Part shown: piece by piece, positions 3,970 through 42,971 of the stretch | How positions within the stretch are numbered: the stretch's first letter is position 1 | How the letters are laid out: the number at the start of each line of letters is the position of its first letter | Source: Oscillospiraceae bacterium | Lineage (GTDB): Bacteria > Bacillota > Clostridia > Oscillospirales > Butyricicoccaceae | Direction: 5' to 3' | DNA: 64,000 nt | Assembly (NCBI GenBank): GCA_015068445.1 | Contig: SVKN01000003.1 | Location: 3,088 to 67,087 of the forward strand | Program-made: the position numbers and the translations under genes | Notes under the pieces: generated by a model | Seen by the model: only the letters and a program-made list of their open reading frames with translations | What the model was told of the DNA's origin: nothing | Databases searched by the model: none

Positions 3970-4896
3970 TTATTTGTACTGAGACTTGATTCGCGGATCG
4001 ATAAAGCCGTACAGGATATCGACGATCAGGTTGACGATCGAGAAGGAGACCGAGAACATGATAACACATCCGAGAACCATGGGGATGTCACGCTTGTTGA
4101 TGGACTGGACCATCAGACGGCCGATGCCGGGCCATGCGAAGACGGACTCGGTCATGACAGAGCCGCCGAGCATGCCGCCGAACTGAATACCGATGACCGT
4201 GACGGTGGGGATCAGGGCGTTCTTCAGAGCGTGCTTGGTGATGACCTTGTTCTCAGACACGCCCTTGGCGCGAGCCGTGCGGATATAGTCGGCACGAATG
4301 ACCTCGAGCATGGAGGAACGGGTGACACGGGCAATGGCGGCCATGTGCTGGAAGCCCAGGGTGACGCCGGGAAGGACAAGCGACTTGAAGCCCTCGGAGC
4401 CGGAGGAGGGCAGCCAACCCAATCTCAGGGAGAAGAGCAGAATCAGCAGCATGCCGAGCCAGAAAACAGGCATCGACAGACCGAGCAGAGCGACGAACAT
4501 GCTGACGCCGTCAAACACGGAGTTCTGATGAACGGCGGCCAGGATACCGATGGGCAGCGCCAGGATGATGGACAGGCTGACGGCCGTGACGGTCAGGCGC
4601 AGGGTGTTGGGGAAGCGGGCAAAGATCTCGGTCGCGCAGTTCAGACCGGAGTTGTAGGAAGTGCCCATATCGCCCCTCAGCAGATTGAGAATGTAGCGGG
4701 CGTACTGGATCAGAACGGGATCGTTGAGGTGCATTTCCTCACGCAGCGCCGCGATCTGCTCCGGGGTAGCCTGTTCACCAAGGATAACCTTGGCGGGATC
4801 GCCGGGCGCCATGTTCATGATCAGGTAAATGATCAGTGTGACGCCCAGAAGAACAGGAACCATTGCGATGAGTCGTTTAACGATGAATTTCCACAT
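3970..4896 (-). CDS. oppB: oligopeptide/dipeptide-family ABC transporter permease
   Basis: Typical OppB/DppB N-terminus MWKFIVKRLIAMVPVLLGVTLIIY and EAA loop DYIRTARAKGVSENKVITKHALKNA. SD AAGGAGGAAAC precedes the ATG. Confidence 0.85.
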   Translation of the reverse strand: MWKFIVKRLIAMVPVLLGVTLIIYLIMNMAPGDPAKVILGEQATPEQIAALREEMHLNDPVLIQYARYILNLLRGDMGTSYNSGLNCATEIFARFPNTLRLTVTAVSLSIILALPIGILAAVHQNSVFDGVSMFVALLGLSMPVFWLGMLLILLFSLRLGWLPSSGSEGFKSLVLPGVTLGFQHMAAIARVTRSSMLEVIRADYIRTARAKGVSENKVITKHALKNALIPTVTVIGIQFGGMLGGSVMTESVFAWPGIGRLMVQSINKRDIPMVLGCVIMFSVSFSIVNLIVDILYGFIDPRIKSQYK

Positions 4897-4984
4897 GTTT
4901 CCTCCTTGAGTTTTTCATTGTACCGGTTGCCCGATACAAGATGATACTTTGTCGATCGGCTCATATAAATATATTAGTCAGTCG

Positions 4985-5018
4985 GCAAAATAATCGCTGT
5001 CTGCCCCCGGCAAACAGC
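4985..5018 (-). terminator. intrinsic terminator inside the opp 5' leader (candidate attenuator)
   Basis: Minus strand reads GCTGTTTGCC-GGG-GGCAGACAGC followed by GAUUAUUUUG. It lies about 90 nt upstream of the oppB ATG. Confidence 0.45.
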
Positions 5019-5160
5019 ATTAAAAACCGGATCACGGCATCACTTTTGGCCATGTCGAACGGAAAAACCCACCATAGCCGACCCAACGTCCTGTCACGAC
5101 GCCAGGCCCCGCCGACATCACCGAAAAAGGATGACCGCTCGCCGATCTTTGAATAATGCT

Positions 5161-5189
5161 ATTATACACACATAAGCGTCTCTTTGCAA
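5161..5189 (-). promoter_or_regulatory. sigma-70-type promoter of the opp operon
   Basis: Minus strand reads TTGCAA - 17 nt - TATAAT. The predicted transcript has a leader of about 255 nt. Confidence 0.5.
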
Positions 5190-5456
5190 TGAAAATCTTC
5201 CAGCCGATTGCGCTTTCTTGCATTTTTGAGAAAAAAATATCTGATTTTTTGTGCAGCTTCACCATTTTTCGATTTTATTCATTAACAATATCCACAAACT
5301 GGATATTCATTTTGCACAGATTCTTCCTGTTACCGGTTTGTAATTTAGTACGAAATGACCAGAAACAGGCAGGGTCTGAGTGGGTATAATAACGGTTACA
5401 AAAGGTTGCAAAATGGTAACAAATCGTGTAAACTGAGCGGGTAAAGGAGTGAGTCC

Positions 5457-6431
5457 ATGAAAAAGCACCGATCTCTGGCGGCTTTTATTGTGATTTGTTC
5501 ACTGTTCGTTCTGCCGGTCAGCGCCGCCGAAGAAGCGCCGCGCATCGTATTTGCCGACGCGCCGGCCGCCGCGGCCGAGGCCGTGCAGACCATAACGAGA
5601 AAGCTGTTGATCCCCTACGGCGTCGGTCCCGGCGCGGGCGGTTCCGATCTGGACGCCGTCGCAGAGGGCTATTTCGCCGTCGAATCCATCGCCATCACCG
5701 CCGCGGCGCCCGTCTCCGGCGCGTCCGCCGCTATCCGCACCCGCCTGAAGGAGGCGGGGACCTACGTCTCGCTGGACGATTTTCTGGCCGAGGCCGCCGA
5801 GGACAGCCAGCTGGACTACGGCAAATACACTGTCACCGCCACGGCGGGCGGCCATCGCATGGAGTTCCCCAAGGGCGTCTGGTACTGCAAGATCGACGGC
5901 AGGGTCCTGCCCATGAGCGAATCCTGCTTCGAGGAGGACGGATGTCTTTTCGTCCCCATCCGCGTGCTGGCCCCCGTGTTTTCCTATGATATCGAATGGG
6001 ACGCGGAGACCCGCGCCGTCACGCTGACGGACAACGGTCAGCCGTTTTTGACCGGCGACCAGTTCTATAACCAGAGCGACTGCACGCTGCTGGCCAAGCT
6101 GATCCGCGCCGAGGCGGGCAACCAGTCCCTCACCGGCAAGATCGCCGTGGGCAACGTGGTGCTCAACCGCGTGCGCAGCAAGATGTTCCCCAACTCCATC
6201 AAATCCGTCATTTACGACCGCAGCAGCGGCATCCAGTTCACCACGGCCTACAACGGCGCCATCGACAAGAGCCCCACCGAGGAGTGCATCGTGGCCGCCA
6301 AGCTGTGCCTGGAGGGCTATTCGGTCACCGAAAGCAGCCTGTTCTTCTTCAATCCACGGTATCCGTCCAGATGGATCAAGAACAACAGGACCTACGTTAT
6401 GACCATCGGCGACCACGTCTTTTATAAATAA
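5457..6431 (+). CDS. secreted cell-wall hydrolase, SleB-like catalytic domain with copper-amine-oxidase-N-like domain
   Basis: Signal peptide MKKHRSLAAFIVICSLFVLPVSA. Central CLFVPIRVLAPVFSYDIEWDAETRAVTL stalk-type domain. C-terminal LIRAEAGNQSLTGKIAVGNVVLNRV...IQFTTAYNG matches SleB/Hydrolase_2. Confidence 0.8.
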   Translation: MKKHRSLAAFIVICSLFVLPVSAAEEAPRIVFADAPAAAAEAVQTITRKLLIPYGVGPGAGGSDLDAVAEGYFAVESIAITAAAPVSGASAAIRTRLKEAGTYVSLDDFLAEAAEDSQLDYGKYTVTATAGGHRMEFPKGVWYCKIDGRVLPMSESCFEEDGCLFVPIRVLAPVFSYDIEWDAETRAVTLTDNGQPFLTGDQFYNQSDCTLLAKLIRAEAGNQSLTGKIAVGNVVLNRVRSKMFPNSIKSVIYDRSSGIQFTTAYNGAIDKSPTEECIVAAKLCLEGYSVTESSLFFFNPRYPSRWIKNNRTYVMTIGDHVFYK

Positions 6432-7692: not shown

Positions 7693-7986
7693 TTACTTCT
7701 CTTTCAGTCTGTCAAATACGACCTTATACCCGTCCGCGCCGAACTGGAGGCTCCTGTTGACGCGCGAGATGGTCGCGGTGGAGGCCCCCGTTTTGTTTGC
7801 AATGGCAGTGTACGTCATCCCCTCACGGAGCATCCATGCGACTTCAAAGCGCTGTGAAATGGCCTTGAGCTCACTGACCGTACAGATGTCCTCGAAGAAC
7901 CGGTAGCACTCCTCCAGATCCTCCAGGGATAAGACAGCCTGAAACAGGCGGTCGGTCTCCGGACTTTGCAATTTGCTCTTATACAT
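7693..7986 (-). CDS. yerC: YerC/YecD-family Trp-repressor-like protein
   Basis: LFQAVLSLEDLEECYRFFEDICTVSELKAISQRFEVAWML..GMTYTAIANKTGASTATISRVNRSL is the YerC/YecD signature. The MYKSK start (97 aa) is preferred over the tracked start at 8049, which has no SD. Confidence 0.8.
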   Translation of the reverse strand: MYKSKLQSPETDRLFQAVLSLEDLEECYRFFEDICTVSELKAISQRFEVAWMLREGMTYTAIANKTGASTATISRVNRSLQFGADGYKVVFDRLKEK

Positions 7987-8184
7987 CACGCACCCGCTTT
8001 CGGATTTATTGAACAGTTCACATAATGTGTTATTATCATAGCACATCACCGCGCAAAAAGAAACGGATGATTTTCACCTTTTCATATTTTTGTCACAATT
8101 GCTGTTTCAAAGGCTATTTTTCGTCATTTTGCACAGCTCTTTTTCTCATTTGAGCCTTTTTTTGTATTGAGTGCTTGAAAGCTT

Positions 8185-9018
8185 TTACGTGCGATAGTGC
8201 TTCTTCAGCAGGGCGATCTCCCGGGCGTAGCCGTCCAGCTCATTGGGCGTCTCCAGATAAAAGGGCAGCTCGCGCAGGGACGGATGGTTGATGATCCGCT
8301 CCACGGCCGCCAGGCCCAGAGCGCCCTCGCCGATCTTTTCGTGACGGTCCTTGTGGGCGGACATAGGATTTTTGCTGTCGTTGAGGTGGATGGCCTTTAA
8401 ACGGTCCAGTCCGATGATCCGGTCGAACTGCTCCAGCACGCCGTCCAGGTCGTTGACGATATCGTAGCCGCCCTCCCAGACGTGGCAGGTGTCGAGGCAG
8501 ACGCCCATCTTGTCGCTGAGCTCCACGCGATCGAGGATCGCCTTCAGCTCTTCGAAGGTGCGGCCGATCTCGCTGCCCTTGCCCGCCATGGTCTCCAGCA
8601 GCACGGTGGTGTGCATCCCGGGCCAGAGGATGTCGTTGAGCATGGCAACGATGAAGTCGGTGCCGACCTCCACGCCCTGCTTGACATGGCTGCCGGGATG
8701 GAAGTTGTAGCAGTTGCCCGGCAGGTACTCCAGCCGCTGCAGGTCGTCCAGCATGGTGTTCCGGGCGAAATCGCGCAGGCCGGGATCGGCCGCGCAGGCG
8801 TTCAGCGTGTAAGGCGCGTGGCAGAGGATGTGCGCGATGTCATGCTCCGCGGCGAAATCGCGGTAGGCCGCCATGTCGTCGGGGTCCAGCGGCTTCGCCG
8901 AGCCGCCCCGGGGATTGCGGGAGAAAAACTGAAAGGTGTTGGCGCCGATGGAGGCCGCTTCCCTGCCCATGGCCAGATACCCTTTCGATACCGATAAATG
9001 ACAGCCGATCCTGAACAT
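8185..9018 (-). CDS. nfo: deoxyribonuclease IV (endonuclease IV)
   Basis: [13 protein letters not shown]...[44 protein letters not shown] and HLNDSK match the Nfo TIM-barrel metal-site motifs. Start placed at MFRIG, downstream of AAAGGAG. Confidence 0.85.
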
Positions 9019-23158: not shown

Positions 23159-25309
23159 ATGACAAAAGAGTATTACGCACATATTTCGGAGGACGGCAGA
23201 AAACAAACGGTCCTCGCTCACCTTGAAGGTACCGCTGCACTGAGCGGCAATTTTGCCGCCGCTTTCGGTGAAAGGGCCGCCGGACAGCTGCTGGGGCTCG
23301 CGCACGACGTCGGCAAGTGTTCAAACGCCTTTCAAAAGCGTCTGCAGGGCGGCATGACCGTCGATCACGCGTCCGCAGGCGCCTACGAAAGCATTCGGGC
23401 AGATCCGCAAATGGGATATTGGGCCGCCTGCTGTATCGCCGGACATCACGGCGGCTTGCCCGATCTCGGCAATCCTATCACCGATCAGCCCGGTGATGGG
23501 ACCATGTTCGGGCGTATCCGAAAGGTACACGAAAAGCAGGTTCCGCCGTATGAGATGATCCTGTCCCTGCCGAAGACTGTCCGGCCGGATAAGGTCGGCG
23601 CCAGCCATCTTTCCGATTCATTTTTGATCCGGATGCTGTATTCCTGTCTCGTTGATGCAGACTATCTCGACACCGAGCAGTTCATGAAGCCGCAGAATGA
23701 CGCAGCCCTCCCTCACAGCTCTCTGCGGGAGTTGTGGGATCGGCTGGAAGAACAGGATCGACGGTTTCAGGACAAAGGAGGAGAGCTGAACCTGCTGCGC
23801 AGGCAGATCCGCGCCTCATGCCTGAAAAAGGCATTCCTACCAAAAGGGTTTTTTACTCTGACCGTTCCCACAGGCGGCGGCAAAACGCTGACTTCTATCG
23901 CTTTTGCGCTGCGTCACGCCATTGAGCACGGCATGGACCGCATCATTTACGTGATCCCGTATACTTCGATCATTGAGCAGACAGCCAAGGTCTTTCGCGG
24001 CATATTCGGCGAGGAGAATGTCCTTGAGCACCATTCCAACGCCGTTTATGAGGTCCCTGAAAACGGAAGCACCGGTCAGTACGAAAAGGTCAGGGCGACA
24101 GAAAACTGGGACGCGCCCATCATCGTCACCACTGCCGTCCAGTTTTTCGAATCGATATACAGCAACCGGCCGTCAAAATGCAGGAAACTGCACAGCATCG
24201 CCAACAGTGTAGTCGTTTTTGATGAGGCACAGATGCTGCCGATCAGCCATCTGCGGCCTTGTACGGCCGCCATCGCGTCACTGGTGGATCGGTTCGGTGT
24301 CAGCGCCGTCCTCTGCACGGCGACGCAGCCGAAGCTGGACGACCTGCTGAGCGAATATGCAGGCAGCCGCACGGTCACGGAGTTGTGTCCCGAACAGATC
24401 CGCCAGGCTGACGTCTTTCGCCGTGTCACATTTCGGGATATAGGCAAGACAGACGCCGGTCAGCTCGCGCGACAGCTTGCTGCTCATCGGCAGGTCCTCT
24501 GTGTCGTCAATACGCGGCAGTCGGCCCGGACGCTTTTCGATCTGCTGCCGGAGGAGGGACGCTGTCACCTTACGACCCTGATGACCCCTCACGACAGGCG
24601 ATTGGCATTTGAGGATATCCGGCGCCGTCTGGAGGCAGGTCTTCCCTGCCGCGTCGTTTCCACCTCCCTGATTGAAGCCGGGGTCGACGTGGATTTCCCC
24701 GCCGTATATCGGGAGCTTGCGGGGCTCGACTCGATCCTGCAGGCTGCAGGGCGCTGCAACCGTGAGGGAAAGCGCAGGGCTGAAGAAAGCGTCGTGACGA
24801 TCTTTCACGGTGTATCCGCTGTCCCGATGCTCCAGCGCATCAACGTTTCTGCAGCTGAGGAGGCGCTCGCTGCGTTCGGCAGCCCGGCGTCGCCAGAGGC
24901 GATCCGGCGGTATTTTTCCATTCTGCGCTCGCTGCGTGCCAATGAGATCGACCAAAGCGAGACAATCTCTTCACTGGAGCATGGAATTGATGGCTGCAAT
25001 ATACCCTTCCGGACTGTTGCGGAACGGTTCCACCTGATCGACAGCAATACGCGCACCGTCTATATTCCTCTCGGCGCCGGTGAGGCGCTCTGTGAGCGTC
25101 TTCTTGCCGGAAAGCTCGACCGCGCGGGCTTCCGCACGATCGGGCAGTACGGCGTCAGCGTATATGAACATCAGTTCCGGGCTCTTTACGCCGCCGGTTT
25201 GTTGGCGCAAGCGGACGAGGAGAGCGCTGTCCTGACAGACGTCAGCCGCTACGACGCTGCGACCGGTCTCTGTCTCGATGAACCGCAAGGCCAGGCAAAC
25301 TTTGTCTGA
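23159..25309 (+). CDS. cas3: CRISPR-associated nuclease/helicase Cas3 (HD plus DEAH-type helicase)
   Basis: HD motifs (LAHDVGKCS, AGHHGGLPD), helicase motif I PTGGGKT and motif II VVVFDEAQ. First gene of a I-C-type cas operon. Confidence 0.95.
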   Translation: MTKEYYAHISEDGRKQTVLAHLEGTAALSGNFAAAFGERAAGQLLGLAHDVGKCSNAFQKRLQGGMTVDHASAGAYESIRADPQMGYWAACCIAGHHGGLPDLGNPITDQPGDGTMFGRIRKVHEKQVPPYEMILSLPKTVRPDKVGASHLSDSFLIRMLYSCLVDADYLDTEQFMKPQNDAALPHSSLRELWDRLEEQDRRFQDKGGELNLLRRQIRASCLKKAFLPKGFFTLTVPTGGGKTLTSIAFALRHAIEHGMDRIIYVIPYTSIIEQTAKVFRGIFGEENVLEHHSNAVYEVPENGSTGQYEKVRATENWDAPIIVTTAVQFFESIYSNRPSKCRKLHSIANSVVVFDEAQMLPISHLRPCTAAIASLVDRFGVSAVLCTATQPKLDDLLSEYAGSRTVTELCPEQIRQADVFRRVTFRDIGKTDAGQLARQLAAHRQVLCVVNTRQSARTLFDLLPEEGRCHLTTLMTPHDRRLAFEDIRRRLEAGLPCRVVSTSLIEAGVDVDFPAVYRELAGLDSILQAAGRCNREGKRRAEESVVTIFHGVSAVPMLQRINVSAAEEALAAFGSPASPEAIRRYFSILRSLRANEIDQSETISSLEHGIDGCNIPFRTVAERFHLIDSNTRTVYIPLGAGEALCERLLAGKLDRAGFRTIGQYGVSVYEHQFRALYAAGLLAQADEESAVLTDVSRYDAATGLCLDEPQGQANFV

Positions 25310-25464
25310 ACGCAAAGGGCCAGAGCGTAAGCCCCGGCCCATTTGCCTCGTGATAGACATAATCACAATTTCAACCCGCAAACGCGTAAAAGCGTTCGAC
25401 AAGAATAGTATATCACTTTTGTCAACCGCAAATCTTTTATAAACATAATCACAAAAAGTTGATA

Positions 25465-25493
25465 TTGACATGTATTATCTGCTTATATATAAT
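25465..25493 (+). promoter_or_regulatory. internal consensus promoter in front of cas5
   Basis: TTGACA - 17 nt - TATAAT in an AT-rich 215-bp cas3-cas5 spacer. Confidence 0.55.
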
Positions 25494-25532
25494 TGAATTA
25501 ATCCAATTCACAAGAGAAAGGAGTTGTTCGAT

Positions 25533-26192
25533 ATGATCTCGCTCGAAGTATGGGGAGACTATGCGGCCTTCAACCGTCCGGAAATGAAGACGGAACGCGT
25601 TACCTATGACGTCATGACGCCGTCGGCGGCACGTGGCATCCTGGATGCGATCTTCTACCACCCGGGCCTGCGGTGGGTGGTAGACCGCATCACGGTCTGC
25701 TCGCCCATTCGTTTTACCAACATCCGGCGCAACGAGGTCAAGGATGTGATCTCTGCCAGCAAGGTCAAAACGGCGCTCAGGCGCGGTCCCGGCGATCTGT
25801 GCCTGGTCACCTCGGAAAGCATCCAGCAGCGAGCCGCCATGGTTCTCAAGGACGTACGGTACATCATAGACGCTCATTTTGAAATGACCGAGCGCGCCGC
25901 CGCAAGCGACAATCCGGGCAAGTTTCAGGAAATGATGCGCAGGAGAGTTGAGAAGGGCCAGTTTTATCATGCGCCCTATCTCGGCGTCCGTGAGTTCCCT
26001 GCCGCCTTTGCGCCCTGTTCCAACCGCCCTCCCTGCCCCGAGGAGCTCCGCGGCGAACGCGATCTGGGGTGGATGCTGCTGGACATGGATTACTCAGATC
26101 GGGAGAATATCCGCCCCATCTTTTTCCGCGCGTCCATGAAGGACGGCGTCATCGAGGTCCCGGATCCCCGGAAGGAAGGTGTTGCCGGATGA
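25533..26192 (+). CDS. cas5: Cas5c (Cas5d) pre-crRNA endoribonuclease, type I-C
   Basis: ISLEVWGDYAAFNRPEMKTERVTYDVMTPSAARGILDAIFYHPGLRW is the Cas5d signature. SD AAAGGAG lies 9 nt before ATG 25533. Confidence 0.9.
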   Translation: MISLEVWGDYAAFNRPEMKTERVTYDVMTPSAARGILDAIFYHPGLRWVVDRITVCSPIRFTNIRRNEVKDVISASKVKTALRRGPGDLCLVTSESIQQRAAMVLKDVRYIIDAHFEMTERAAASDNPGKFQEMMRRRVEKGQFYHAPYLGVREFPAAFAPCSNRPPCPEELRGERDLGWMLLDMDYSDRENIRPIFFRASMKDGVIEVPDPRKEGVAG

Positions 26193-27931
26193 TCCTGCAG
26201 GCTCTGACGAGCTATTATGAATCGCTGGCTGAAAAGGGTCAGATCGCGCGGCCGGGATGGTCAAGCGCCCGAATCGCGTGGGCAATCATGCTGGATCGCG
26301 ACGGAGTGCTCCGCCGCATCGCTCCGCTGCAGACACAGGCAGAGGGGCGCAAACCACAGGCCATGTCCTTTGTTCTGCCTGCTCCCGTCAAGCGTACGGT
26401 CGCCATCGATCCAAACTTCCTGTGGGATAACGCCTCTTATCTGCTGGGGATCGACAGCAAGGGCAAACCGGAGCGCAGCCGCCGCTGCTTTGAGGCAGCC
26501 GCCGCACTGCATCACAAGCTGCTGGACGATCTGGACAGCGCCGCTGCCCGCGCCATATGCCGCTTCTTCGACAGCTGGGAGCCCGCGGAAGCATCGGCTC
26601 ATCCCGCGCTGAACGGTATTCTGGATCAGGTCACCGCAGGAGGCAATCTCCTGTTCATGGCAGACGGCAGCTACGCTCACGACGATCCTCAGATCAAACG
26701 CGCCTGGCAATCATTCTATGACGGCAGCGGCTTCGGTGAGATCGCTCAATGCCTCGTCACCGGCAAGGCAGAGCTGGTCGCGCCCGTCCATCCGGCGATC
26801 AAAGGCGTGATGGGCGCGCAGTCAAGCGGGGCGGCGCTCGTCTCCTTCAACGCGCCGGCCTTCAACTCCTATGGCAAGGAGCAGGGCTACAACGCCCCTA
26901 TCGGCAAGTCCGCCGCCTTTGCCTACACGGCGGCGCTCAATCACCTTCTGTCCGAAAAGAACAGCCATAAACAAATCGGCGACACTACGATCGTCTATTG
27001 GGCAGAGGGCGGCGAGACGCAGTATCAGGGCTTCTCAGCAGCCGCTATGTTTGAGGATGCGCCGCCGGAGGGCATGGACGAGGACGCGTTCCGATCGGCT
27101 GTCGCCAAGCTGGCCAAGGGCCTGCCTTGCCCGGAGCAGGGGCTTGATCCCGACAGGACCTTTTATATCCTCGGCCTCACTCCCAATGCAGCGCGCCTTT
27201 CCGTTCGCTTCTTTTACCGCGATTCCTTCGGGCGGCTGATGAAAAATGTCAACGACCATCACGAACGTATGGCGATCGTTCGGCCGTCCTATGACCCGCA
27301 TCCGACGATCCCTCTCTGGGCGCTACTGCGCGAAACTGTCAACCAGAACGCTCGGACAAAGACACCGAGTCCGGTCATGGCAGGCGCCGTGGCCCGTGCG
27401 GTCTTCTCCGGCGGGCTCTATCCCGCGTCACTGCTGCAGGCCGTAATGCTGCGCATCCGCGCCGAGCACGAGGTCACCCGCGGCCGTGCCGCGATCATCA
27501 AGGCGTATTATTTGAGGCTGTATGCGAATATGCCCGAATCCACGCTTTTGGAGGTAATGCAAATGCAACTCAACGAATCCTGTACGTATCTACCCTATGT
27601 GTTAGGTCGGCTTTTTGCGATCATGGAAAAGATTCAAATCGAATCTGTCAATGGTCCTCTAAATCGAACAATTAAGGATAGTCTCTTTAATGCCGCAGCA
27701 ACAACACCCAATTCGGCCTTTGCAAGGCTTTTCCCACTGAATGAGTATCATTTGAAAAAACTGTTGCGCGACAAAAAAGGACTTGGCATCATTTACGATA
27801 ACATGAAAAGCCACATTGCAGCTATGATCAACTCCCCCATTCCTTCGCGCTTTTCCAATGAAGAAACGAATTGCTTCTATATTGGATACTATCATCAAAG
27901 ACATCAGCTTTATGAAAAGAAAGAGGGTTAA
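26189..27931 (+). CDS. cas8c: Cas8c (Csd1) large subunit, type I-C
   Basis: MILQALTSYYESLAEKGQIARPGW is a typical Csd1 N-terminus. ATGA overlap with the cas5 stop; the tracked ORF start at 26069 is an upstream artefact. Confidence 0.9.
   Translation: MILQALTSYYESLAEKGQIARPGWSSARIAWAIMLDRDGVLRRIAPLQTQAEGRKPQAMSFVLPAPVKRTVAIDPNFLWDNASYLLGIDSKGKPERSRRCFEAAAALHHKLLDDLDSAAARAICRFFDSWEPAEASAHPALNGILDQVTAGGNLLFMADGSYAHDDPQIKRAWQSFYDGSGFGEIAQCLVTGKAELVAPVHPAIKGVMGAQSSGAALVSFNAPAFNSYGKEQGYNAPIGKSAAFAYTAALNHLLSEKNSHKQIGDTTIVYWAEGGETQYQGFSAAAMFEDAPPEGMDEDAFRSAVAKLAKGLPCPEQGLDPDRTFYILGLTPNAARLSVRFFYRDSFGRLMKNVNDHHERMAIVRPSYDPHPTIPLWALLRETVNQNARTKTPSPVMAGAVARAVFSGGLYPASLLQAVMLRIRAEHEVTRGRAAIIKAYYLRLYANMPESTLLEVMQMQLNESCTYLPYVLGRLFAIMEKIQIESVNGPLNRTIKDSLFNAAATTPNSAFARLFPLNEYHLKKLLRDKKGLGIIYDNMKSHIAAMINSPIPSRFSNEETNCFYIGYYHQRHQLYEKKEG
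27563..27931 (+). CDS. cas11: putative Cas11c small subunit from an internal start within cas8c (122 aa)
   Basis: In-frame GGAGG-TAATGCA-ATG at 27551-27565. The location and size match the internally translated small subunit reported for type I-C cas8c. Confidence 0.5.
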   Translation: MQLNESCTYLPYVLGRLFAIMEKIQIESVNGPLNRTIKDSLFNAAATTPNSAFARLFPLNEYHLKKLLRDKKGLGIIYDNMKSHIAAMINSPIPSRFSNEETNCFYIGYYHQRHQLYEKKEG

Positions 27932-27934
27932 ATC

Positions 27935-28822
27935 ATGGAGACCATCAAAAACCGCTATGAGTTCGTGATCCTGTTCGACGTTGAAAACGGCAATCCCAAC
28001 GGCGACCCCGACGCCGGCAACATGCCCCGGATCGATCCCGAGACCGGTTACGGCCTCGTGACAGACGTCTGTCTCAAGCGCAAGATCCGTAATTATGTCG
28101 AGACCGTCAAAGAAGATGCGCCCGGTTACCGCATCTACGTCAAGGACGGCGTTCCCCTCAATCGCAGCGACAAGGAAGCCTGCGACGCCATCGGCGTCAA
28201 GGCGGACAAGCTGAAAGAGGAGAAAAAGAAAGACGATCAGCTGGATGCCAAACTGCGCGACTACATGTGCCTGAACTTCTTCGATATCCGCACCTTCGGC
28301 GCGGTGATGACCACCTTTGTCAAGGGCGCGCTCAACTGTGGGCAGGTCCGCGGTCCCGTCCAGCTCGGTTTTGCCCGCAGCATCGACCCCATCATGCCCC
28401 AGGAGGTCACGATCACCCGCCTGGCCATCACAACGGAGGAGGACGCCGAAAAGAAAGGCACCGAGATGGGGCGCAAATATATCGTACCTTATGGTCTCTA
28501 CCGCTGTGAGGGCTATGTCTCGGCCAATTTGGCCCGCAAGACGACCGGCTTCTCCGAAGAGGACCTCGAGCTGCTGTGGCAGGCCATCATCAATATGTTT
28601 GAATACGATCATTCCGCCGCCCGCGGCAAAATGTCCGTGCGTGAGCTGATCGTGTTCAAGCACGATACCGAGCTTGGCTGTGCTCCCGCATACAAGCTGT
28701 TTGACGCCGTCCATGTCGAGAAGAACGGGGACGTCGTTTATCCCCGCGCATATACCGATTATAAAGTGACCGTGGACTCAGCGTCTCTCCCCGCAGGGGT
28801 CACCTGCCAGCGGAAGATATGA
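27935..28822 (+). CDS. cas7: Cas7c (Csd2) backbone subunit, type I-C
   Basis: YEFVILFDVENGNPNGDPDAGNMPRIDPETGYGLVTDVCLKRKIRNY is the Csd2 signature. Confidence 0.95.
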   Translation: METIKNRYEFVILFDVENGNPNGDPDAGNMPRIDPETGYGLVTDVCLKRKIRNYVETVKEDAPGYRIYVKDGVPLNRSDKEACDAIGVKADKLKEEKKKDDQLDAKLRDYMCLNFFDIRTFGAVMTTFVKGALNCGQVRGPVQLGFARSIDPIMPQEVTITRLAITTEEDAEKKGTEMGRKYIVPYGLYRCEGYVSANLARKTTGFSEEDLELLWQAIINMFEYDHSAARGKMSVRELIVFKHDTELGCAPAYKLFDAVHVEKNGDVVYPRAYTDYKVTVDSASLPAGVTCQRKI

Positions 28823-29484
28823 TCTATCGGGAGGAGGACTACCTCCAGCTGTCCGGGCTGCAGCATTTTGCGTTTTGTCGGCGGCAGTGGGCTTTGATCC
28901 ATGTGGAGGGGCTCTGGGCAGAGAATCTGCGCACGACGGAGGGGGCGCTGCTGCATGAGCGGGCCCATGACCGTTCCCAGCGGGAGCGGCGCGGTGATCT
29001 GCTTACGATCCGCGGCGCAGCTGTCAGCTCTCCCTCGCTCGGCATTTCCGGCCAATGCGATGTGCTGGAGTACCGAGGCGACCCGAACGGCGTGACGCTT
29101 ACCGGGCTGGATGGTCTGTGGGTCCCCTACCCCGTCGAATACAAGCGTGGCTCCTCCAAGGAGGGCCCCGCCGACCGTCTGCAGCTGTGCGCCCAGGCGA
29201 TGTGTTTGGAGGAGATGCACTGCTGCGCCGTCCCCGAGGGCGCGCTGTTCTACGGCGAGACCCGCCGGCGGGAGATCGTCCGCTTCACAGATGAGCTTCG
29301 CGCCCAGGTCAGCAGCATGCTCAGCGAAATGCACGTGCTTTACGAGCGCGGTCACACGCCGAGAGTCAAGCCGACGGCCTCCTGCCGCGCCTGTTCCCTG
29401 AAGGAGCTGTGCCTGCCGAAGCTGATGCGCATCGTCTCGGCCAGCGCCTATATCGCGGCCGCAAGCCGGGAGGAGGAACCATGA
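28819..29484 (+). CDS. cas4: Cas4 RecB-like exonuclease
   Basis: N-terminal FAFCRRQW plus C-terminal CRACSLKELC four-Cys cluster. RecB motifs (EYKRG, QLCAQAMCLEE). ATGA overlap on both sides. Confidence 0.9.
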   Translation: MIYREEDYLQLSGLQHFAFCRRQWALIHVEGLWAENLRTTEGALLHERAHDRSQRERRGDLLTIRGAAVSSPSLGISGQCDVLEYRGDPNGVTLTGLDGLWVPYPVEYKRGSSKEGPADRLQLCAQAMCLEEMHCCAVPEGALFYGETRRREIVRFTDELRAQVSSMLSEMHVLYERGHTPRVKPTASCRACSLKELCLPKLMRIVSASAYIAAASREEEP

Positions 29485-30512
29485 GACATCTGCTCAACAC
29501 CCTGTTCGTCACCTCCGAGGACGTCTATCTCTCGCTGGACGGCGAAAACGTCGTGGCCAACCGCGATAAACAGGTCGCGGCGCGGTACCCGCTCCACACA
29601 CTGCAAGCCATCGTCACCTTCTCCTACGCGGGCGCATCCCCTGCCCTCATGGGCGCCTGCGCCCGGCGTGACGTCACGCTGGCCTTCTGCACGCCCTCCG
29701 GCCGTTTTCTGGCGCGGACATCCGGGCTCGAGGGCGGCAACGTGCTGCTGCGCCGCACCCAATACCGTATCGCCGACGATCCACCGCAGAGCTGCCGTAT
29801 CGCCCGGAGCATGGTCTTCGGCAAGCTCTACAACGCGCGCTGGAGCATGGAGCGCACAGCCCGCGACCACGCGCCCAGGATCGACAGTGACGTCTTCCGC
29901 GGCAGCATCGATGTGATCAAGGGTCTCCTGCCGCAGGTCGCCGAGGAAACGGACGAGGATTCGCTTCGCGGGCTGGAGGGCGTCGGCGCCAAGGCGTACT
30001 TTGACGCCTTTGACCAGATGATCCTGCGGGACAAGGAGCATTTCTTCTTTCGTGGGCGAAATCGAAGGCCGCCGCTGGACAACGTCAACGCGATGCTCTC
30101 CTTCGCCTATTCGCTGCTGACGAACGACTGCGCCTCCGCGTTGGAAAGCGTCGGGCTCGACTCCTATGTAGGGTTCCTCCACACCGACCGCCCGGGGCGG
30201 CAGTCTCTTGCGCTCGACCTGATGGAGGAGCTGCGGCCGTGCTTTGCCGATCGCTTCGTCCTGACGCTGATCAATAACCGTGTTTTGTCGTCAGACGATT
30301 TCCTGCAGGAGGAAAGCGGCGGCGTACGGCTGACGGACGACGGCCGCAGGACTTTTATCAAAACCTGGCAGGAGCGGAAGCAGGATGTCATCACGCATCC
30401 GTTCCTGCAGGAAAAGCTGCCCTGGGGCCTTGTGCCCTATGTCCAGGCGCTGCTGCTGGCGCGCTATATGCGAGGAGATCTGGATGCATATCCGCCGTTT
30501 TTGTGGAAGTGA
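29481..30512 (+). CDS. cas1: Cas1 integrase, type I-C
   Basis: MRHLLNTLFVTSEDVYLSLDGENV...GVGAKAYF...NAMLSFAYSLL...GFLHTDRPGRQSLALDLMEELRP matches Cas1c. SD GGAGGAACC precedes the ATG. Confidence 0.95.
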   Translation: MRHLLNTLFVTSEDVYLSLDGENVVANRDKQVAARYPLHTLQAIVTFSYAGASPALMGACARRDVTLAFCTPSGRFLARTSGLEGGNVLLRRTQYRIADDPPQSCRIARSMVFGKLYNARWSMERTARDHAPRIDSDVFRGSIDVIKGLLPQVAEETDEDSLRGLEGVGAKAYFDAFDQMILRDKEHFFFRGRNRRPPLDNVNAMLSFAYSLLTNDCASALESVGLDSYVGFLHTDRPGRQSLALDLMEELRPCFADRFVLTLINNRVLSSDDFLQEESGGVRLTDDGRRTFIKTWQERKQDVITHPFLQEKLPWGLVPYVQALLLARYMRGDLDAYPPFLWK

Positions 30513-30520
30513 GGTGCAGG

Positions 30521-30811
30521 ATGCTCGTTTTGATCACCTATGACGTCAATACGGAGACGCCCGCCGGGCGAAAGCGTCTGCGCCAGATCGCCAAGCAGTG
30601 CGTCAACTACGGTCAGCGTGTGCAGAACTCCGTTTTCGAATGCCTTCTGGATCCGTCTCAGTGCAAGACGCTCCAGCATAAGCTGGTCAGCATCATGGAT
30701 GAATCGACTGACAGCCTGCGGTTTTATTATCTCGGAGATCGCTATCAGTCAAAGATCGAGCATTTCGGGGCAAAAAAGAGTTACGAGCCCGAAGGCGTGC
30801 TGATGATCTGA
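30521..30811 (+). CDS. cas2: Cas2 endoribonuclease
   Basis: MLVLITYDVNTETPAGRKRLRQIAKQCVNYGQRVQNSVFEC, 96 aa. Confidence 0.95.
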   Translation: MLVLITYDVNTETPAGRKRLRQIAKQCVNYGQRVQNSVFECLLDPSQCKTLQHKLVSIMDESTDSLRFYYLGDRYQSKIEHFGAKKSYEPEGVLMI

Positions 30812-30981
30812 CGCGAAGTGCAAGCGATCATCCCTGACCGCGGCGGTTCGCACCGTGAAATATCACAACGAGTCCGCGCAGTGTCCGGAAATGTGACCCC
30901 GGGTGTCGGGCGTTCCGGTGTGTTTTGGAATTATTGTTTTGTTTTTTGTCAAAAGCGGGCGAAGAATTGTCTGCTTTTGCT
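30812..30981 (+). promoter_or_regulatory. CRISPR leader
   Basis: A 170-bp non-coding stretch between cas2 and repeat 1 becomes AT-rich (TTGGAATTATTGTTTTGTTTTTTGTCAAAAG) next to the array. The degenerate repeat is at the opposite end of the array. Confidence 0.6.
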
Positions 30982-32093
30982 GTCCCGCTCCCCACGGAGC
31001 GGGTGGATTGAAATTACCCCTTATCATAATATCTTGTTGCTTATCCGCGTCCCGCTCCCCACGGAGCGGGTGGATTGAAATCAGACACGTTTCACACCCC
31101 CAGATGGACGGTCAACGTCCCGCTCCCCACGGAGCGGGTGGATTGAAATTTTAATCGGTCAGTCGCGCGGCTCGCGCGGACTATGTCCCGCTCCCCACGG
31201 AGCGGGTGGATTGAAATTTCCCGTTATACAGCGTTCCGTAAGTTCGCATGGAGTCCCGCTCCCCACGGAGCGGGTGGATTGAAATAACCACAGCGGGAGT
31301 CAGCGTCAGGAAGGTTCCGGTCCCGCTCCCCACGGAGCGGGTGGATTGAAATATTTTGAAGCAGAGACACTTTCGGATCTGCTTGGTCCCGCTCCCCACG
31401 GAGCGGGTGGATTGAAATTCTTCAGAATGACCAGTATTTCCGCATAGTGGGTTGTCCCGCTCCCCACGGAGCGGGTGGATTGAAATTTCTCAGCGGATGA
31501 GCGACGAAGACGACACTATCCGTCCCGCTCCCCACGGAGCGGGTGGATTGAAATGTCCTCCGTCCAATACGCATGGCCCGTTGTGGTGTCCCGCTCCCCA
31601 CGGAGCGGGTGGATTGAAATGGCAAGCGAAGCGCGCCAGTAGCGTATCACTAAACGTCCCGCTCCCCACGGAGCGGGTGGATTGAAATCAACATCCTCAC
31701 CCTTGAAAGCTTTGAAAACAAAAGTCCCGCTCCCCACGGAGCGGGTGGATTGAAATGCTGATGAGTGTAATCATGAGGCTGAATTGATTGAGTCCCGCTC
31801 CCCACGGAGCGGGTGGATTGAAATGATGCGGGAGCGAGCGGCACGGACTCCCAGCCTGGTCCCGCTCCCCACGGAGCGGGTGGATTGAAATTGATGTATG
31901 AGCTCTATATGCAGCTGATCAAAGCGTCCCGCTCCCCACGGAGCGGGTGGATTGAAATTCCAGGACCTTGTACTCCTTGAGCCCGGCGGGCGGGTCCCGC
32001 TCCCCACGGAGCGGGTGGATTGAAATGCACCTGGGTTATCGTTGCCGTAGCCTTCGAGTGTTCCGCTTCCGCGCGAAGCGGGACACTCGAAGG
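30982..32093 (+). CRISPR. type I-C CRISPR array: 16 identical 33-nt repeats plus 1 degenerate terminal repeat, 16 spacers of 33-35 nt
   Basis: The repeat GTCCCGCTCCCCACGGAGCGGGTGGATTGAAAT starts at 30982, 31049, 31117, 31185, 31253, 31320, 31386, 31454, 31522, 31588, 31656, 31724, 31792, 31859, 31926 and 31994. The degenerate copy is at 32060-32093. The ...GGATTGAAAT 3' end is typical of I-C repeats and reads in the same direction as the cas genes. Confidence 0.97.
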
Positions 32094-32276: not shown

Positions 32277-35200
32277 ATGCCGCAGGAGGCAGTGCGGGAC
32301 ATCGAGTGGCAGCAGTACGCCTATGCCAAGGCCGGCGTGGACGAGAAGCTCGAGAGCGCGGCGGAGGAGGCTGCGGCCAACTACGTGGCCGACCTGCTGG
32401 AAGGCGGCCAGGTGCTGGACGAGTTTATCGCACGGCAGACGAGCGCCGGCAACAGGAACCTGCTGCAGAAGATCGGGGACGCGATCCGCAATGTGTACCG
32501 CGACGTCAAGGCGTACCTGTCCGGCGACGAGGCGAGGGCGATCCGCCAGAGCATCAGAAAGCTGGAGGCGGCGCTGGACGCGGCGGCGGAGCAGGCGAAG
32601 GAGAATGCGAAGAACGGCGTGACCGCGGAGGCGCGGGAGGCAAATAAAAACGCCGCACAGGGCGGCGTGAAATACAGCACTAAGCAGGAAGTTCTGGCGC
32701 TACCTGGTGTTGACTAATTCAAGCATCAAGGAGCAGCTCAGAACGCATGCAGGGGAAATCAATCAGATGGAGCCTGTTGCTGTTGTAGTGTACAATCACA
32801 ATCTTCGTGAGGATCTTGTTGACATCATGATGAGCCAGCTTCCCAAAATGGGCGGTGGATATATCAGAAACAGTGGTGTTGACTTTGTTTTTGATCTTCC
32901 GGGAGCAAAACGGATAAATGGACATGCAACAGGGGCGGAGATGAGAGCGGCTGCTATGGCTGCGCCATATGTCGCCAAGTATGGCAAACTAATTGCTGGG
33001 CAAAAAAACCACGAGAATACCGGATTGACGACACTAACCTTTGCTGCGCCCGTTATTATCAATGAGCAGCCAGTTAATGTAGGGGTGGTCATTCAGTTCC
33101 AAAACAATGGCAGCCCAAGAGCTGTGAATGTTGGGCTTCAGGGCGGAGAAAAATTTGTCATAGATACAAAAAAAGCACTCCGAGGAACCGATAGCCGTGT
33201 TGACCGTTTTGGTCAAGGGACGTCGCTACCCACAAGGAATGCTTCTAAAGACAATGTACCACATCCCGACGAGTCTGTCAAGAGCGAGGGGAAGTTCTCG
33301 CTCCAAATGCCGGTGGAGGAGACGAAGGACCTGCTGGCGCTGCACAATCTGACGGCGGACAAGCTGTCTAAGGCGCTGGCGCTGGGAGGGTTCCCGATGC
33401 CGAGCATCGCGGTGACGAGGGACAGCATCCCGCACACCAACTTCGGCGACATTACCCTCGTAATGAACAAATCCACGGTCGATCCGAAGGCCGACAGGCG
33501 AAATACGGTATACTCCGCCGACGCCTGGACGCCGACGTTCCCGAGTATCGAGTATGAAGCAGACCCGAAGGCGTAGAGCCGTCTGCGCAGCAGGTACTAC
33601 GAGATGCGCAACAAGTTCGGCGATGAAGCGACGCGCCCGCTGTATCCGTGGGGCAACTATGCCGAGGATCAGCTGAACCGCAGCGGCGGCGTGGATGGGG
33701 TGATCGAAAGAGCCATGGACGACACGGACATGATGAAGCTGTTCCTGATGGACCGTGGGCTCGACGTGCCCGGGCCGGTGACGGAGGAGAGCGTGACGCG
33801 GATCGATGACGGGACGCGCCAGTTCTACGATCACTTCATCAATGCCCTTGGCAAAGACGTCTTTGCGGAGCTTTCAACGGCAGACGGGAAGAACCCGGTC
33901 GAGGTGCGGCGCGAATGGTGGGGCAAGCACGGCGAGGCGTTTGAAACGGCCTATAAGGATTACATGACGAAGCTGGGTTTCTCCGAGGAGGAGATCGGCA
34001 ACGTCCTGGAGCACGAGACGGTGGCCGCACAGACGCGCAAGGCGCTGGAGATGCGCAACTACATCAGAAACGGCCCGGAGACGCGGAAGACGACCACCAA
34101 CATCACCAAGACCCAGGACGCGATCAGGGCGGCGGTCGATCAGGCGGCGTACAGCGAATGGCTGCACGAGCTTTTTGACGGACTGGAAAAGAGGCAAGGG
34201 ATCTACAACGGTCGGGATCGGTATACGTCCAGTGGCAACCAGCGCAGCTTCAAGGCGACGCATTATGAGGTGACGCTGGAGAATATCGCAAAGGCGATGG
34301 CAGCGGAGAACAACGGCAACAGCCGCAACGTGTCGGGATTCCACGGTGTAAAGAGTCTGCGCGCCGGCATGGCCGAGCGCTTTTCGAGCATCGCGCAGAT
34401 GCACGAGCGGGAAGGCCGGCTGCAGCATTTGACGCAGAAGCAGGCCGACCAGATCAGCGACGCGCTGGCCGAGCGGCTTAACGATATCCTGGTCCGCATT
34501 TACGACAGCGGTGCGCACGGGAGCAGCGATAATTCATTCATCGAAATGGACAACATCGGCGAGACGCTGATGGAGGTCACGGAGCAGAGGAGCATCACGC
34601 CGGAGACGATCAAGCGCGTGTTTAAGAAGTATCGGTATAATCTGGACAATGCGCTGGCCGAGGACGTGCGGGAGCTGCTGTTCGACGTGTCGCAGATGCC
34701 GGTGAACATCTTTGAAGCGAAGCCGGAGAGGGCCGTGCGATTTGACGAGGTCCTTGCGGCGATCGTTCCGACAGGGACGGACCCGAAACTGATCCAGCAG
34801 CTGCGCGACGCAGGCGTCCAGAACATCACCGAGTACGAAAAGGACAACGACGCGGAGCGCGTGGAGAAGGTCAACCAGGTCGAGGGCGCGAAGTTCAGCC
34901 TGAAAGCCTTTGAAGACGGCCGGAGATTTGTTGACGTTGAAACGGATCAGAAGCAGTTTGACGGACTGACGCCGCGGGAAATGGGCACGCTTGCGACCAA
35001 AATCATCAAGGATAAGTTTGCGGGGAAGGTCGTCGGCATAGATAACCGCGTGTTTGTCAACGGACGGGCAGCGGGAGAATACGGATTTCCGATGAAAAAG
35101 CTGGACGCTGATCTGCACGAGGCCAAAATGCGGGCGGCGCCAGAACTGGATAATTTGCTCGACGCAGGGACTAATTTCAGAACGGAACCTGACGGCAGAG

Positions 35201-40986: not shown

Positions 40987-42396
40987 TTAGTCCATCGGGG
41001 GACGGGCGGGGTCGAGGACCAGCTTGGGATCGAAGAAGTACTTGCTGATGCGCTCGGGGTGCTTCATCATCGTGTAGCCGTCGAGGTTCAGGCGCTCCAT
41101 GAACATGACGTCGCCGGCGAAGCGGACGTTCATGGGCGAGCCAACGGGGCAGTAGATGTTGAACTTGCCCTTTTCGATCAGGTAGCGGAAGACGGGCGCG
41201 TTGTCGTCGAACTGGACGCCGAAGGGCGAGATGAAGATGTTGGTATCGCCGACGTAGGGCTCGATCTCGTTCTGCCAGCGGCCGGTGTCATACTGCATCT
41301 GCTCCATGGTGATGGTCTTCTTGTTCCAGTACTGGTTGTGGGTGTAGCTGTGGCTGGAGATCTGCCAGCCGGTATTGCGCAGAGCCTGGGCGACCTCCTT
41401 GACCTTCTCCAGCATGGCCTTGCCCTCGGCCTCGGAGAACAGCTCAAGGTCGGTGATGCGGTAGCCGAAAGCGCCGGCATAGCCGGTCTCGGCCACGATG
41501 CCCTTGGCGCCGCGGAAGGAGAACTCGGGATGCTCGTCGACGAAGGTGTCGAGGATCGGCATGACGTCGCCGTCGTAAGTGACGTGCTCCACGCCGTCGT
41601 GATCCTTGACGATCGTGACGACGCGGCCGTTCTCGTCCACGTCAAGGCGATCGGCAAAGCCGTCGGGCTTCATGTAGTCATAATAGTTGACGTCATCGAT
41701 GGAGATGACGAGGGGCTTCTTGCCGGCGGGCAGATAGATGGGCTTGGGCTGCGCGTTGCCATCGGCGTCCAGCTCCATCATCTCGGTGATGTCGTACAGC
41801 ACGAAGTCGTTCTCCAGGAACAGCGGCAGCATCTTCTGGAACTCGCTGACCGTGGTCATCCACTCGTTGTAGCCCTGGGCGGGATGGCCCTTGTTGTCGA
41901 AGGCCAGATCGGGATAGACGATCAGGCTGTGGAAGAAGACGTGGTAATACTTGCCCTCATACAGCACCAGCTTGCTCTTGAGGTCCTGGATCTCGGCGAT
42001 CTTCGCCTTGGCGGCGTCGGTGTCGACGCCCTGCAGGGCTTCGATGGCCTCGTCGTAGAAATAGCCGCGGGCCAGTGTGTCGGCCTTCAGGATGGCCTCG
42101 TCCTCGGGCAGCGGCTCCGCCGTCACGACGGGCGCGCCGTCATTTGTCTTCGCGGCGTCGTCGGTCTTCGTGCCGTCGGCGGCGACGGTGGTCGCCTCCG
42201 CGGTCTTCCCGGCGTTCTTCGTCACATCGGCGGGCGTATCGCCGCCGCGGCCGGTGACCAGCTTCACCAGACCCGTGACGGCCATCAGCGCGGCCAGCAG
42301 CGCCAGACCGTACAGAACGACGGTGGGACGGCGGCGGCGACGGCGTCTCTGGGTGCGGGCGGGCGTTCCGGCGTCATGTTTGTATTGCATGCTCAC
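40987..42396 (-). CDS. membrane-anchored polysaccharide deacetylase (NodB-homology) family protein
   Basis: N-terminal basic stretch plus TM. ISIDDVNYYD (Asp-Asp motif) and SSHSYTHNQ (HxxxH) are NodB-like. Confidence 0.7.
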   Translation of the reverse strand: MSMQYKHDAGTPARTQRRRRRRRPTVVLYGLALLAALMAVTGLVKLVTGRGGDTPADVTKNAGKTAEATTVAADGTKTDDAAKTNDGAPVVTAEPLPEDEAILKADTLARGYFYDEAIEALQGVDTDAAKAKIAEIQDLKSKLVLYEGKYYHVFFHSLIVYPDLAFDNKGHPAQGYNEWMTTVSEFQKMLPLFLENDFVLYDITEMMELDADGNAQPKPIYLPAGKKPLVISIDDVNYYDYMKPDGFADRLDVDENGRVVTIVKDHDGVEHVTYDGDVMPILDTFVDEHPEFSFRGAKGIVAETGYAGAFGYRITDLELFSEAEGKAMLEKVKEVAQALRNTGWQISSHSYTHNQYWNKKTITMEQMQYDTGRWQNEIEPYVGDTNIFISPFGVQFDDNAPVFRYLIEKGKFNIYCPVGSPMNVRFAGDVMFMERLNLDGYTMMKHPERISKYFFDPKLVLDPARPPMD

Positions 42397-42515
42397 ATAC
42401 CCCCTGTTCAGGTTTTTCTGTCTCTTTGACCGGTCCGAAGGCCGGATTGTTCCTTATACAGATTATATTTTAGCGCATTTCGTTATATAATACAAGAGGA
42501 TTTCGACAGTTTTGA

Positions 42516-42531
42516 CCACAAGATGTTGTTT
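42516..42531. promoter_or_regulatory. NrdR-box-like 16-mer (box 1)
   Basis: CCACAAGATGTTGTTT matches acaCwAtATaTwGtgt at 12/16 positions, including all six strongly conserved ones. A weaker copy CTTCAAGATGTTGGGA lies 41 bp downstream (42557-42572). Confidence 0.35.
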
Positions 42532-42644
42532 TCTCTTCCCCGTCTCCCCTCTCTCGCTTCAAGATGTTGGGAATCCGCCGCGTCAAAGAGCAGCGCCGGC
42601 GGAGCGGTTCTTTTGGGTATTCCGACGAAAATGAAAAAGAGGGC

Positions 42645-42672
42645 TTGCGTTCGCACATTTTGTGTGTATAAT
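42645..42672 (+). promoter_or_regulatory. promoter of the NrdD-like mini-protein gene
   Basis: TTGCGT - 16 nt - TATAAT. Confidence 0.5.
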
Positions 42673-42681
42673 AAAGATAGA

Positions 42682-42697
42682 CCACAAAATGTTGTAT
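42682..42697. promoter_or_regulatory. NrdR-box-like 16-mer (box 3), overlapping the transcription start / SD region
   Basis: CCACAAAATGTTGTAT matches the NrdR consensus at 12/16 positions with all conserved positions intact. It sits between the -10 and the SD. Confidence 0.35.
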
Positions 42698-42710
42698 GGA
42701 GGATCCTATC

Positions 42711-42971
42711 ATGACGATAAACGTAGAAGGCGGCGAGCTCTCCAAGAAGGAGATCCAGGCCTACATCGATTACATTCAGGACAAGAACCATCAGGTCGTG
42801 GACGAGCTGACCATCACCGTGGACGGCGAATACGTCGATCTGAACTACACCCTCGTCCCCGTCCCCTTCGAGCGCATCCGCCGCATCACCGGCTATCTGG
42901 TGGGCACCATGGACCGCTGGAACGACGCCAAGAAGGCCGAGGAGCGCGACAGGGTCAAGCACAGCCTGTAA
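42711..42971 (+). CDS. stand-alone NrdD-type glycyl-radical loop protein (86 aa)
   Basis: The C-terminal FERIRRITGYLVGTMDRWNDAKKAEERDRVKH matches the RxxGY...N.(G/A)K..E...R..H C-terminus of class III ribonucleotide reductase. The SD GGAGGA lies 7 nt before ATG 42711 and itself overlaps the tracked ATG at 42696. Confidence 0.6.
   Translation: MTINVEGGELSKKEIQAYIDYIQDKNHQVVDELTITVDGEYVDLNYTLVPVPFERIRRITGYLVGTMDRWNDAKKAEERDRVKHSL

Follow-up and report, generated by a model that had tools for sequence, protein, structure and literature searches.

The window analyzed here, a 64,000-nt stretch of the genome of an Oscillospiraceae bacterium (contig SVKN01000003.1, positions 3,088 to 67,087), contains an ordinary, complete type I-C CRISPR-Cas system whose cas8c gene appears to be recombinant. 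The 3′-terminal ∼440 nt of cas8c, which also hold the nested gene for the small subunit Cas11c, are best read as an exchanged cassette from a clade with a likely origin at low G+C (GC) content, a reading to which we assign a probability of about 0.78. We refer to the class of Cas11 module found in the window as type A and to the common class as type B; the two are about 40% identical. An initial annotation of the window had reported an abrupt GC drop within cas8c and had proposed that the segment coding for Cas11 was replaced as a cassette from a lower-GC donor. The features on which the argument turns are listed below, with GC3 denoting GC content at third codon positions.

26189 to 27931, + strand: cas8c (csd1), 580 amino acids, starting at the conserved MILQAL; matches PF09709 (1e-173) and TIGR01863
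26189 to 27493, + strand: N-terminal, wedge, and adaptor part of Cas8c, of host-like composition (GC 0.62, GC3 0.74)
27494 to 27509, + strand: left junction motif ATCATCAAGGCGTATT, codons I436-I437-K438-A439-Y440, placed by alignment and by the change point at 27494
27494 to 27931, + strand: AT-rich type-A cassette (GC 0.404, GC3 0.45); covers the linker and the C-terminal domain of Cas8c, the latter doubling as the coding sequence of Cas11c
27550 to 27555, + strand: internal Shine-Dalgarno (SD) sequence GGAGGT, within codons L454-E455-V456
27563 to 27931, + strand: nested cas11c open reading frame (ORF), 122 amino acids (MQLNES...), its ATG being codon M459
27884 to 27898, + strand: GYYHQ motif (G566 to Q570), whose columns are invariant among homologues; the right-hand crossover site in relatives
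27935 to 28822, + strand: cas7c, 295 amino acids; matches PF05107 (5.7e-110) and TIGR02589; host-like GC3 of 0.76

The GC drop is real, and both a change-point fit and a comparison of third codon positions showed that the profile is not smooth. The sample counts first reported for cas8c were exact (37/60 G+C at 27001 to 27060 and 25/60 at both 27601 to 27660 and 27661 to 27720), and over whole segments the GC content is 62.2% at 26189 to 27499, 40.5% at 27500 to 27931, and 57.4% in cas7 (27935 to 28822). A likelihood fit with two change points placed the drop at 27494 (40.4% GC from there to 27931) and the recovery nominally at 27988. We rejected 27988 as the right edge, as it reflects AT-rich codons of the conserved Cas7 N terminus; the codons of cas7 are high in GC3 beginning with its ATG, and the block therefore ends in fact at the junction between the cas8c stop and the cas7 start. 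No 432-nt stretch of the 64 kb is lower in GC than this block (0.07% of such stretches are as low), and in the 2.28-Mb genome, with its overall GC content of 62.2%, 0.09% of 441-nt intervals within ORFs are as GC-poor and 0.43% as GC3-poor. GC3 falls from 0.736 in the N-terminal part of cas8c to 0.455 in the C-terminal part (Fisher p = 1.3e-9) and stands at 0.76 in cas7. Since third codon positions carry the drop, amino acid content alone is insufficient to explain it.

The two parts of Cas8c also differ in their closest relatives, as would be expected of the chimeric gene that was first proposed. We searched the N-part (residues 1 to 434) and the C-part (residues 436 to 580) separately against 5.8 billion proteins, and the two top-120 lists shared no entry besides the query. 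The best relatives of the N-part are 62% identical to it but only 40% identical in the C-part, and the best relatives of the C-part are 58% identical there and 38 to 61% identical in the N-part. The nearest relatives of the N-part are type-B carriers with Cas8c proteins of 572 to 580 amino acids (62 to 63% identity). In a sliding comparison along the protein, affinity passed from type-B carriers to type A at residues 421 to 460, which matches the GC break. The type-B cas8c genes of gut Oscillospirales (for example, L003, L002, and L126; the 572- to 580-amino-acid family, P0005 to P0123) are the closest to the window in cas5 (64 to 74%), the N-part (60 to 63%), and cas7 (81 to 84%), and they share its operon order and internal SD-start arrangement. 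Their Cas11 module, in contrast, is only 37 to 45% identical to that of the window and agrees in GC3 with the remainder of the gene.

Phylogenies of the three regions were in conflict, with the tree of the Cas11 part at odds with both the N-part tree and the Cas7 tree. In the C-part tree, type A forms a single clade (support of 99 in the Shimodaira-Hasegawa-like approximate likelihood ratio test with 9 members and of 100/99 with 19 members) that is parted from all other sequences by a long branch. In the N-part tree, type-A genes are scattered among type-B carriers, so that the label needs 7 changes, and type-A monophyly was rejected by the approximately unbiased (AU) test (log-likelihood difference of 735, p = 1.3e-110). 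On the Cas7 tree the label needs 10 changes, and monophyly was likewise rejected (AU p = 8.6e-93).

The edges of the exchanged segment could be read directly from three A/B pairs, that is, sisters in the N-part tree that differ in cassette type. The DNAs of L084 (type A) and L003 (type B) are 85 to 95% identical over cas5 and nt 1 to 1290 of cas8c, only 32 to 58% identical over nt 1290 to 1700, and again 90 to 100% identical from nt 1720 through cas7. The L118/L126 and L082/L002 pairs lose similarity over the same interval. The left junction, ATCATCAAGGCGTATT (IIKAY), has the same sequence in the window, L084, and L003, and the break in similarity and GC content follows directly after it; in the window, this motif (27494 to 27509) coincides with the GC change point. 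The right junction is GYYHQ, and from this motif onward L084 and L003 are identical again. With junctions at IIKAY and GYYHQ, the exchanged unit comprises the linker and the C-terminal domain of Cas8c, and this domain is at the same time Cas11c.

These observations suggest a model in which a type-A cassette (27494 to 27931) was placed in a GC-rich backbone related to those of type-B carriers. Cassettes would be exchanged by homologous recombination between short and strongly conserved stretches of coding sequence, with ...AAIIKAY as the left motif and GYYHQ as the right one, and one swap would replace the C-terminal domain of Cas8c and all Cas11c subunits together while leaving cas5, the Cas8c body, and cas7 unchanged. 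The type-A clade, being AT-rich at all three codon positions, most likely evolved in low-GC genomes, and its cassettes would have entered GC-rich Oscillospirales loci repeatedly and ameliorated only partly. We infer that the cassette of the window came by the same route.

The nested gene itself is as well supported as a sequence can make it, given the conservation of its start and SD and their alignment to a solved Cas11c. In the window, the region ttGGAGGTaatgcaaATGcaa contains GGAGGT at 27550 to 27555, followed by 7 nt and the ATG at 27563 to 27565. The initial annotation had given the 122-amino-acid product and the position of the ATG correctly, but its GGAGG lies at 27550 to 27554 rather than from 27551, and the distance to the ATG is therefore 8 nt. 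In an alignment of 83 homologous cas8c genes for which DNA was available, 70 have GTG and 12 have ATG at the position of M459, and all but one (82/83) have an SD-like core at the corresponding place upstream (GGAG, GAGG, or AGGA; most often AGGAGGT), so that the internal initiation signal predicted from the window is conserved in homologues. The commonest form of this signal is (A/G)GGAGGT-N7 ahead of GTG or ATG, and E455 and V456, residues whose codons contain part of the SD, are nearly invariant. M459 aligns to residue 1 of Desulfovibrio vulgaris Cas11c (chain 7kha_K), for which internal translation from cas8c is established and the N terminus was mapped experimentally (McBride et al., bioRxiv 10.1101/2020.04.18.045682).

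The D. vulgaris (Nitratidesulfovibrio) Cas8c/Cas11c pair (McBride et al. 2020; PDB 7KHA, 8DEJ) belongs to the same family (PF09709/TIGR01863), and by alignment M459 of the window is M489 of D. vulgaris, the Met1 of Cas11c, which makes the in-frame internal starts homologous. In both systems Cas11c, which in the window is predicted, has about 122 to 124 amino acids and the same sequence as the C-terminal domain of Cas8c. The two Cas11c proteins are, however, only about 41% identical, the nested gene of the window falls in a separate AT-rich clade, and neither a composition break nor an exchange of the nested gene has been reported for D. vulgaris. In Neisseria lactamica, the C-terminal domain of Cas8 (residues 458 to 582) equals Cas11, which in Cascade forms a groove holding the non-target strand (bioRxiv 10.1101/2023.08.05.552134; PDB 8G9S and related). 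The domain plan of that Cas8 (N-terminal domain, wedge, adaptor, and C-terminal domain) matches that of the window, whose cassette (residues 436 to 580) is the linker plus the C-terminal domain; the unit exchanged in relatives thus agrees with the domain boundary described for N. lactamica. The N. lactamica Cas11 chain is distant from that of the window (phmmer E of about 1e-14), and nothing points to an exchange of cassettes in N. lactamica.

The tree conflict and the breakpoints in relatives bear out the exchangeability of the segment, as first proposed, but the AT-rich cassette is not peculiar to this genome. It is found in 17 of the 19 type-A carriers with DNA, at GC 0.37 to 0.46 and GC3 0.38 to 0.60, within host operons whose cas7 has a GC3 of 0.60 to 0.84; type-A carriers include Flavonifractor plautii-like loci, Oscillibacter-like loci, a 580-amino-acid human-gut lineage, and others. 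In type-B genes the GC3 of the C-part follows that of the N-part (r = 0.90), whereas type-A cassettes lie 2.5 to 6.3 standard deviations below the type-B line (window, −5.6). We favor low-GC ancestry of type A with partial amelioration, which is plausible although unproven, because GC at first codon positions (GC1) and the share of Phe, Tyr, Met, Ile, Asn, and Lys (FYMINK) residues are also AT-shifted in type-A C-parts, because two members nested within type A (L244 and L245) have a host-like GC3 of 0.61 to 0.62, because hosts with a higher GC3 tend to have type-A cassettes with a higher GC3 (slope 0.42, r = 0.64), and because the nearest outgroup found (L251) has a type I-C operon that is 33% GC throughout. 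The host-like composition of L244 and L245 also means that AT-richness is not obligatory for type A.

Several findings weigh against this account. The backbone of the window has no near-identical type-B partner, its best N-part relative being 63% identical, and for this reason the case for a swap in the window itself is built on composition, phylogeny, the shared junction motif, and analogy with the three pairs. The lower-GC donor that had been proposed was not identified. Searched both within Cas8c and alone against the 5.8 billion proteins, the cassette had a closest match of 62% amino acid identity. No closer cassette was present among 1.84 billion representatives, metagenome contigs, or 399 Clostridia genomes; phage and plasmid records and IMG/VR viral contigs yielded nothing closer, and no viral copy or plasmid source. 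A stand-alone cas11c that might have served as donor was likewise absent from the protein, phage/plasmid, viral-contig, metagenome, and genome searches. The outgroup L251 sits on a long branch (1.51), and its placement is weak. Finally, synonymous sites are saturated among type-A cassettes, and yet the 17 cassettes remain AT-rich in GC-rich hosts, so that a purely neutral explanation requires an unsampled low-GC reservoir. Either the type-A reservoir is unsampled or the AT composition is maintained.

The second of these possibilities, which the initial annotation had entertained as a very different compositional constraint, is that AT-richness of the type-A Cas11c segment is held by selection on the nucleic acid (tuning of cas11c translation, mRNA stability, or binding of a regulator) and is not a foreign leftover; exchange may occur under it as well. 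Saturation is what lends it weight, since most carriers hold GC3 at 0.38 to 0.49 despite the high GC3 of their cas7 genes and three further ones (L017, L243, and L246) stand at 0.54 to 0.60. The searches of proteins, metagenome contigs, and the 399 Clostridia genomes also found no native low-GC carrier of a true type-A cassette. We nevertheless consider maintained AT-richness unlikely. The host-like L244 and L245 speak against it, the rise of type-A GC3 with host GC3 resembles partial amelioration, and the AT shift in GC1 and amino acid usage fits long residence in AT-rich genomes. As to possible functions, no promoter-like site is present in the AT-rich block, and the 80-nt region surrounding the internal start has a folding energy of −11.1 kcal/mol in type A and in type B alike (p = 0.91); weaker mRNA structure at the internal start was rejected as a cause on the basis of these equal energies.

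That the drop is intrinsic to a Cas11 coding sequence rich in Lys, Asn, Ile, and Tyr, with no recombination involved, is very improbable. Such a tendency does exist, in that 64 homologues show a mean deficit of 7.3 GC points in the C-part relative to the N-part (standard deviation 3.5) and FYMINK residues are commoner in the C-part. The 21.7-point drop of the window is, however, the most extreme of the 65 and lies 4 standard deviations from the mean, its GC3 falls steeply where type-B GC3 barely changes, and the tree conflict and breakpoints contradict this explanation; the GC3 and AU-test results refute it. Least probable of all is an assembly or binning chimera in which reads of two organisms were joined at the conserved motifs: although the genome is a 103-contig draft and assemblers may mis-join at such motifs, four metagenome assemblies made independently (from ENA, Logan, and two JGI samples) agree in every base over the 3.3 kb of cas5-cas8c-cas7, at least 10 contigs encode exactly this Cas8c protein, and many unrelated assemblies show the same architecture, which excludes a chimera as far as assemblies can show. 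These close copies gave no signal of amelioration, the four assemblies being identical and the variants in the cluster differing by 1 to 2 residues of the N-part.

Exchange of the type-A cassette, as we read it, means that nested cas11c is swapped as a unit in nature and that the Cas8c C-terminal domain travels along with it, because both share the same DNA. Pairs such as L084/L003, with modules about 40% identical in Cascade backbones that are 85 to 100% identical in DNA, amount to natural domain-swap experiments, from which the exchangeable module can be delimited as running from IIKAY to GYYHQ. Judging from these sequences, diverged Cas11c/C-terminal-domain modules are predicted to be compatible with the same Cas7, Cas5, and Cas8 body. 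Cas11c is a hidden gene in cas8c that was recognized only recently and is needed for use of type I-C systems in genome editing. To our knowledge, the modularity described for CRISPR systems concerns whole genes or operon modules; the exchange unit here, unlike these, is only part of a gene and has a conserved motif at each end, and we found no paper in the literature describing sub-genic exchange of nested cas11c. A parallel exists outside CRISPR in Rpn_S, a small protein that is made from an internal start within the larger defense gene rpn and that constitutes the variable, exchangeable part (bioRxiv 10.1101/2023.05.02.539157). Rpn is unrelated to Cas8c in sequence and function.

The findings raise the question of why one class stays AT-rich in GC-rich genomes. 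A more speculative reading, which we regard as doubtful, is that type I-C systems of gut Oscillospirales hold at least two deeply diverged, interchangeable allelic classes of nested small subunit that are shuffled between the conserved motifs, with the AT-rich class either actively kept AT-rich or re-imported again and again and an arms race as the driver (for example, escape from anti-CRISPRs or other inhibitors that bind the belly formed by Cas11 and the Cas8c C-terminal domain). Any such selective driver, escape from an inhibitor included, is conjectural. If this reading were true, the gene within a gene would serve Cascade as a module dedicated to diversification. Diversifying pressure may act on the belly that the small subunits form in Cascade, as on the hypervariable N terminus of Cas8c.

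Variation in other parts of cas8c was seen in several type-A carriers. The N-terminal 700 to 800 nt are AT-rich (GC 0.32 to 0.46) within otherwise GC-rich operons in L241 (3001 to 3720), L246 (3001 to 3800), and the 5′ parts of cas8c in L083 and L136, and some type-A carriers may thus have a second exchangeable cassette, covering the domain that recognizes the protospacer-adjacent motif. In the 580-amino-acid "LAKNYERGSDHSMF" lineage (36 of loci L150 to L215, representative L160), the first ∼500 nt of cas8c are hypervariable, with 15 to 42% divergence per 60 nt across this stretch between the two most diverged members. The type-A cassette of these 36 loci has a mean difference of 0.5%, compared to 2 to 4% in cas5, the N-part, and cas7, which is consistent with a recent spread of the cassette. 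A test of polarized single-nucleotide polymorphisms in this population found 14 segregating sites in the cassette, too few for use.

We also note three proteins from outside the window, P0254 (1003 amino acids), P0255 (858 amino acids), and P0258 (724 amino acids), in which a single Cas8c-like polypeptide contains 4, 4, and 2 tandem Cas11c-like modules, respectively, each spanning from ...LGRLF... to ...GYY(H/Q)Q. This suggests tandem duplication within cas8c as another way of supplying copies of the small subunit.

The locus around cas8c is a complete type I-C system with the gene order cas3-cas5c-cas8c-cas7c-cas4-cas1-cas2 and an adjacent CRISPR array, and all seven cas genes scored above the curated cutoffs of Pfam and NCBIfam profiles. 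Its remaining components are as follows.

23159 to 25309, + strand: cas3, 716 amino acids, DEAD/ResIII helicase with Cas3 C-terminal domain (PF00270, PF22590, PF04851)
25524 to 26192, + strand: cas5c, PF09704 (3.8e-42) and TIGR01876 (1.1e-48); longest ORF, from TTG 25524
28819 to 30811, + strand: cas4, cas1, and cas2, the adaptation genes (PF01930, PF01867, PF09827)
30981 to 32036, + strand: CRISPR array, 16 repeats with core GTCCCGCTCCCCACGGAGCGGGTGGATTGAAAT at a spacing of 66 to 68 nt

The identification of cas8c as the type I-C gene in the initial annotation is supported by both of its profiles: it scored 579.5 bits over the full length of PF09709 (cutoff 27) and 436 bits against the equivalog TIGR01863 (cutoff 218.65), which establishes it as the type I-C signature protein. 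Its frame is open upstream to a GTG at 26069 (26069 to 26188, overlapping cas5c), and ATG 26189 (MILQAL) is the real start in all homologues. For cas5c, gene callers place the start at 25533 (219 amino acids) on identical metagenome contigs. A hallmark of type I-C systems is that they have no cas6, its role as CRISPR RNA endonuclease being taken by Cas5c; the cas3-to-cas2 interval contains no extra ORF, and the Cas5c model TIGR01876 is matched. The Cas8c C-part had no match in eight other species of the same genus (G117 to G124), so that the whole type I-C locus is sporadic within the genus, perhaps through horizontal acquisition of the locus as such.

Other AT-rich stretches are present in the window. 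The intergenic spacer between cas3 and cas5 is strongly so (25380 to 25560, GC 0.28 to 0.32 in 120-nt intervals), and further troughs with a GC content of 0.41 to 0.47 over 432 nt lie at about 4800 to 5630, 7745 to 8300, 32700 to 33220, and 42356 to 42850, of which the one at 32.7 kb is immediately beyond the CRISPR array.

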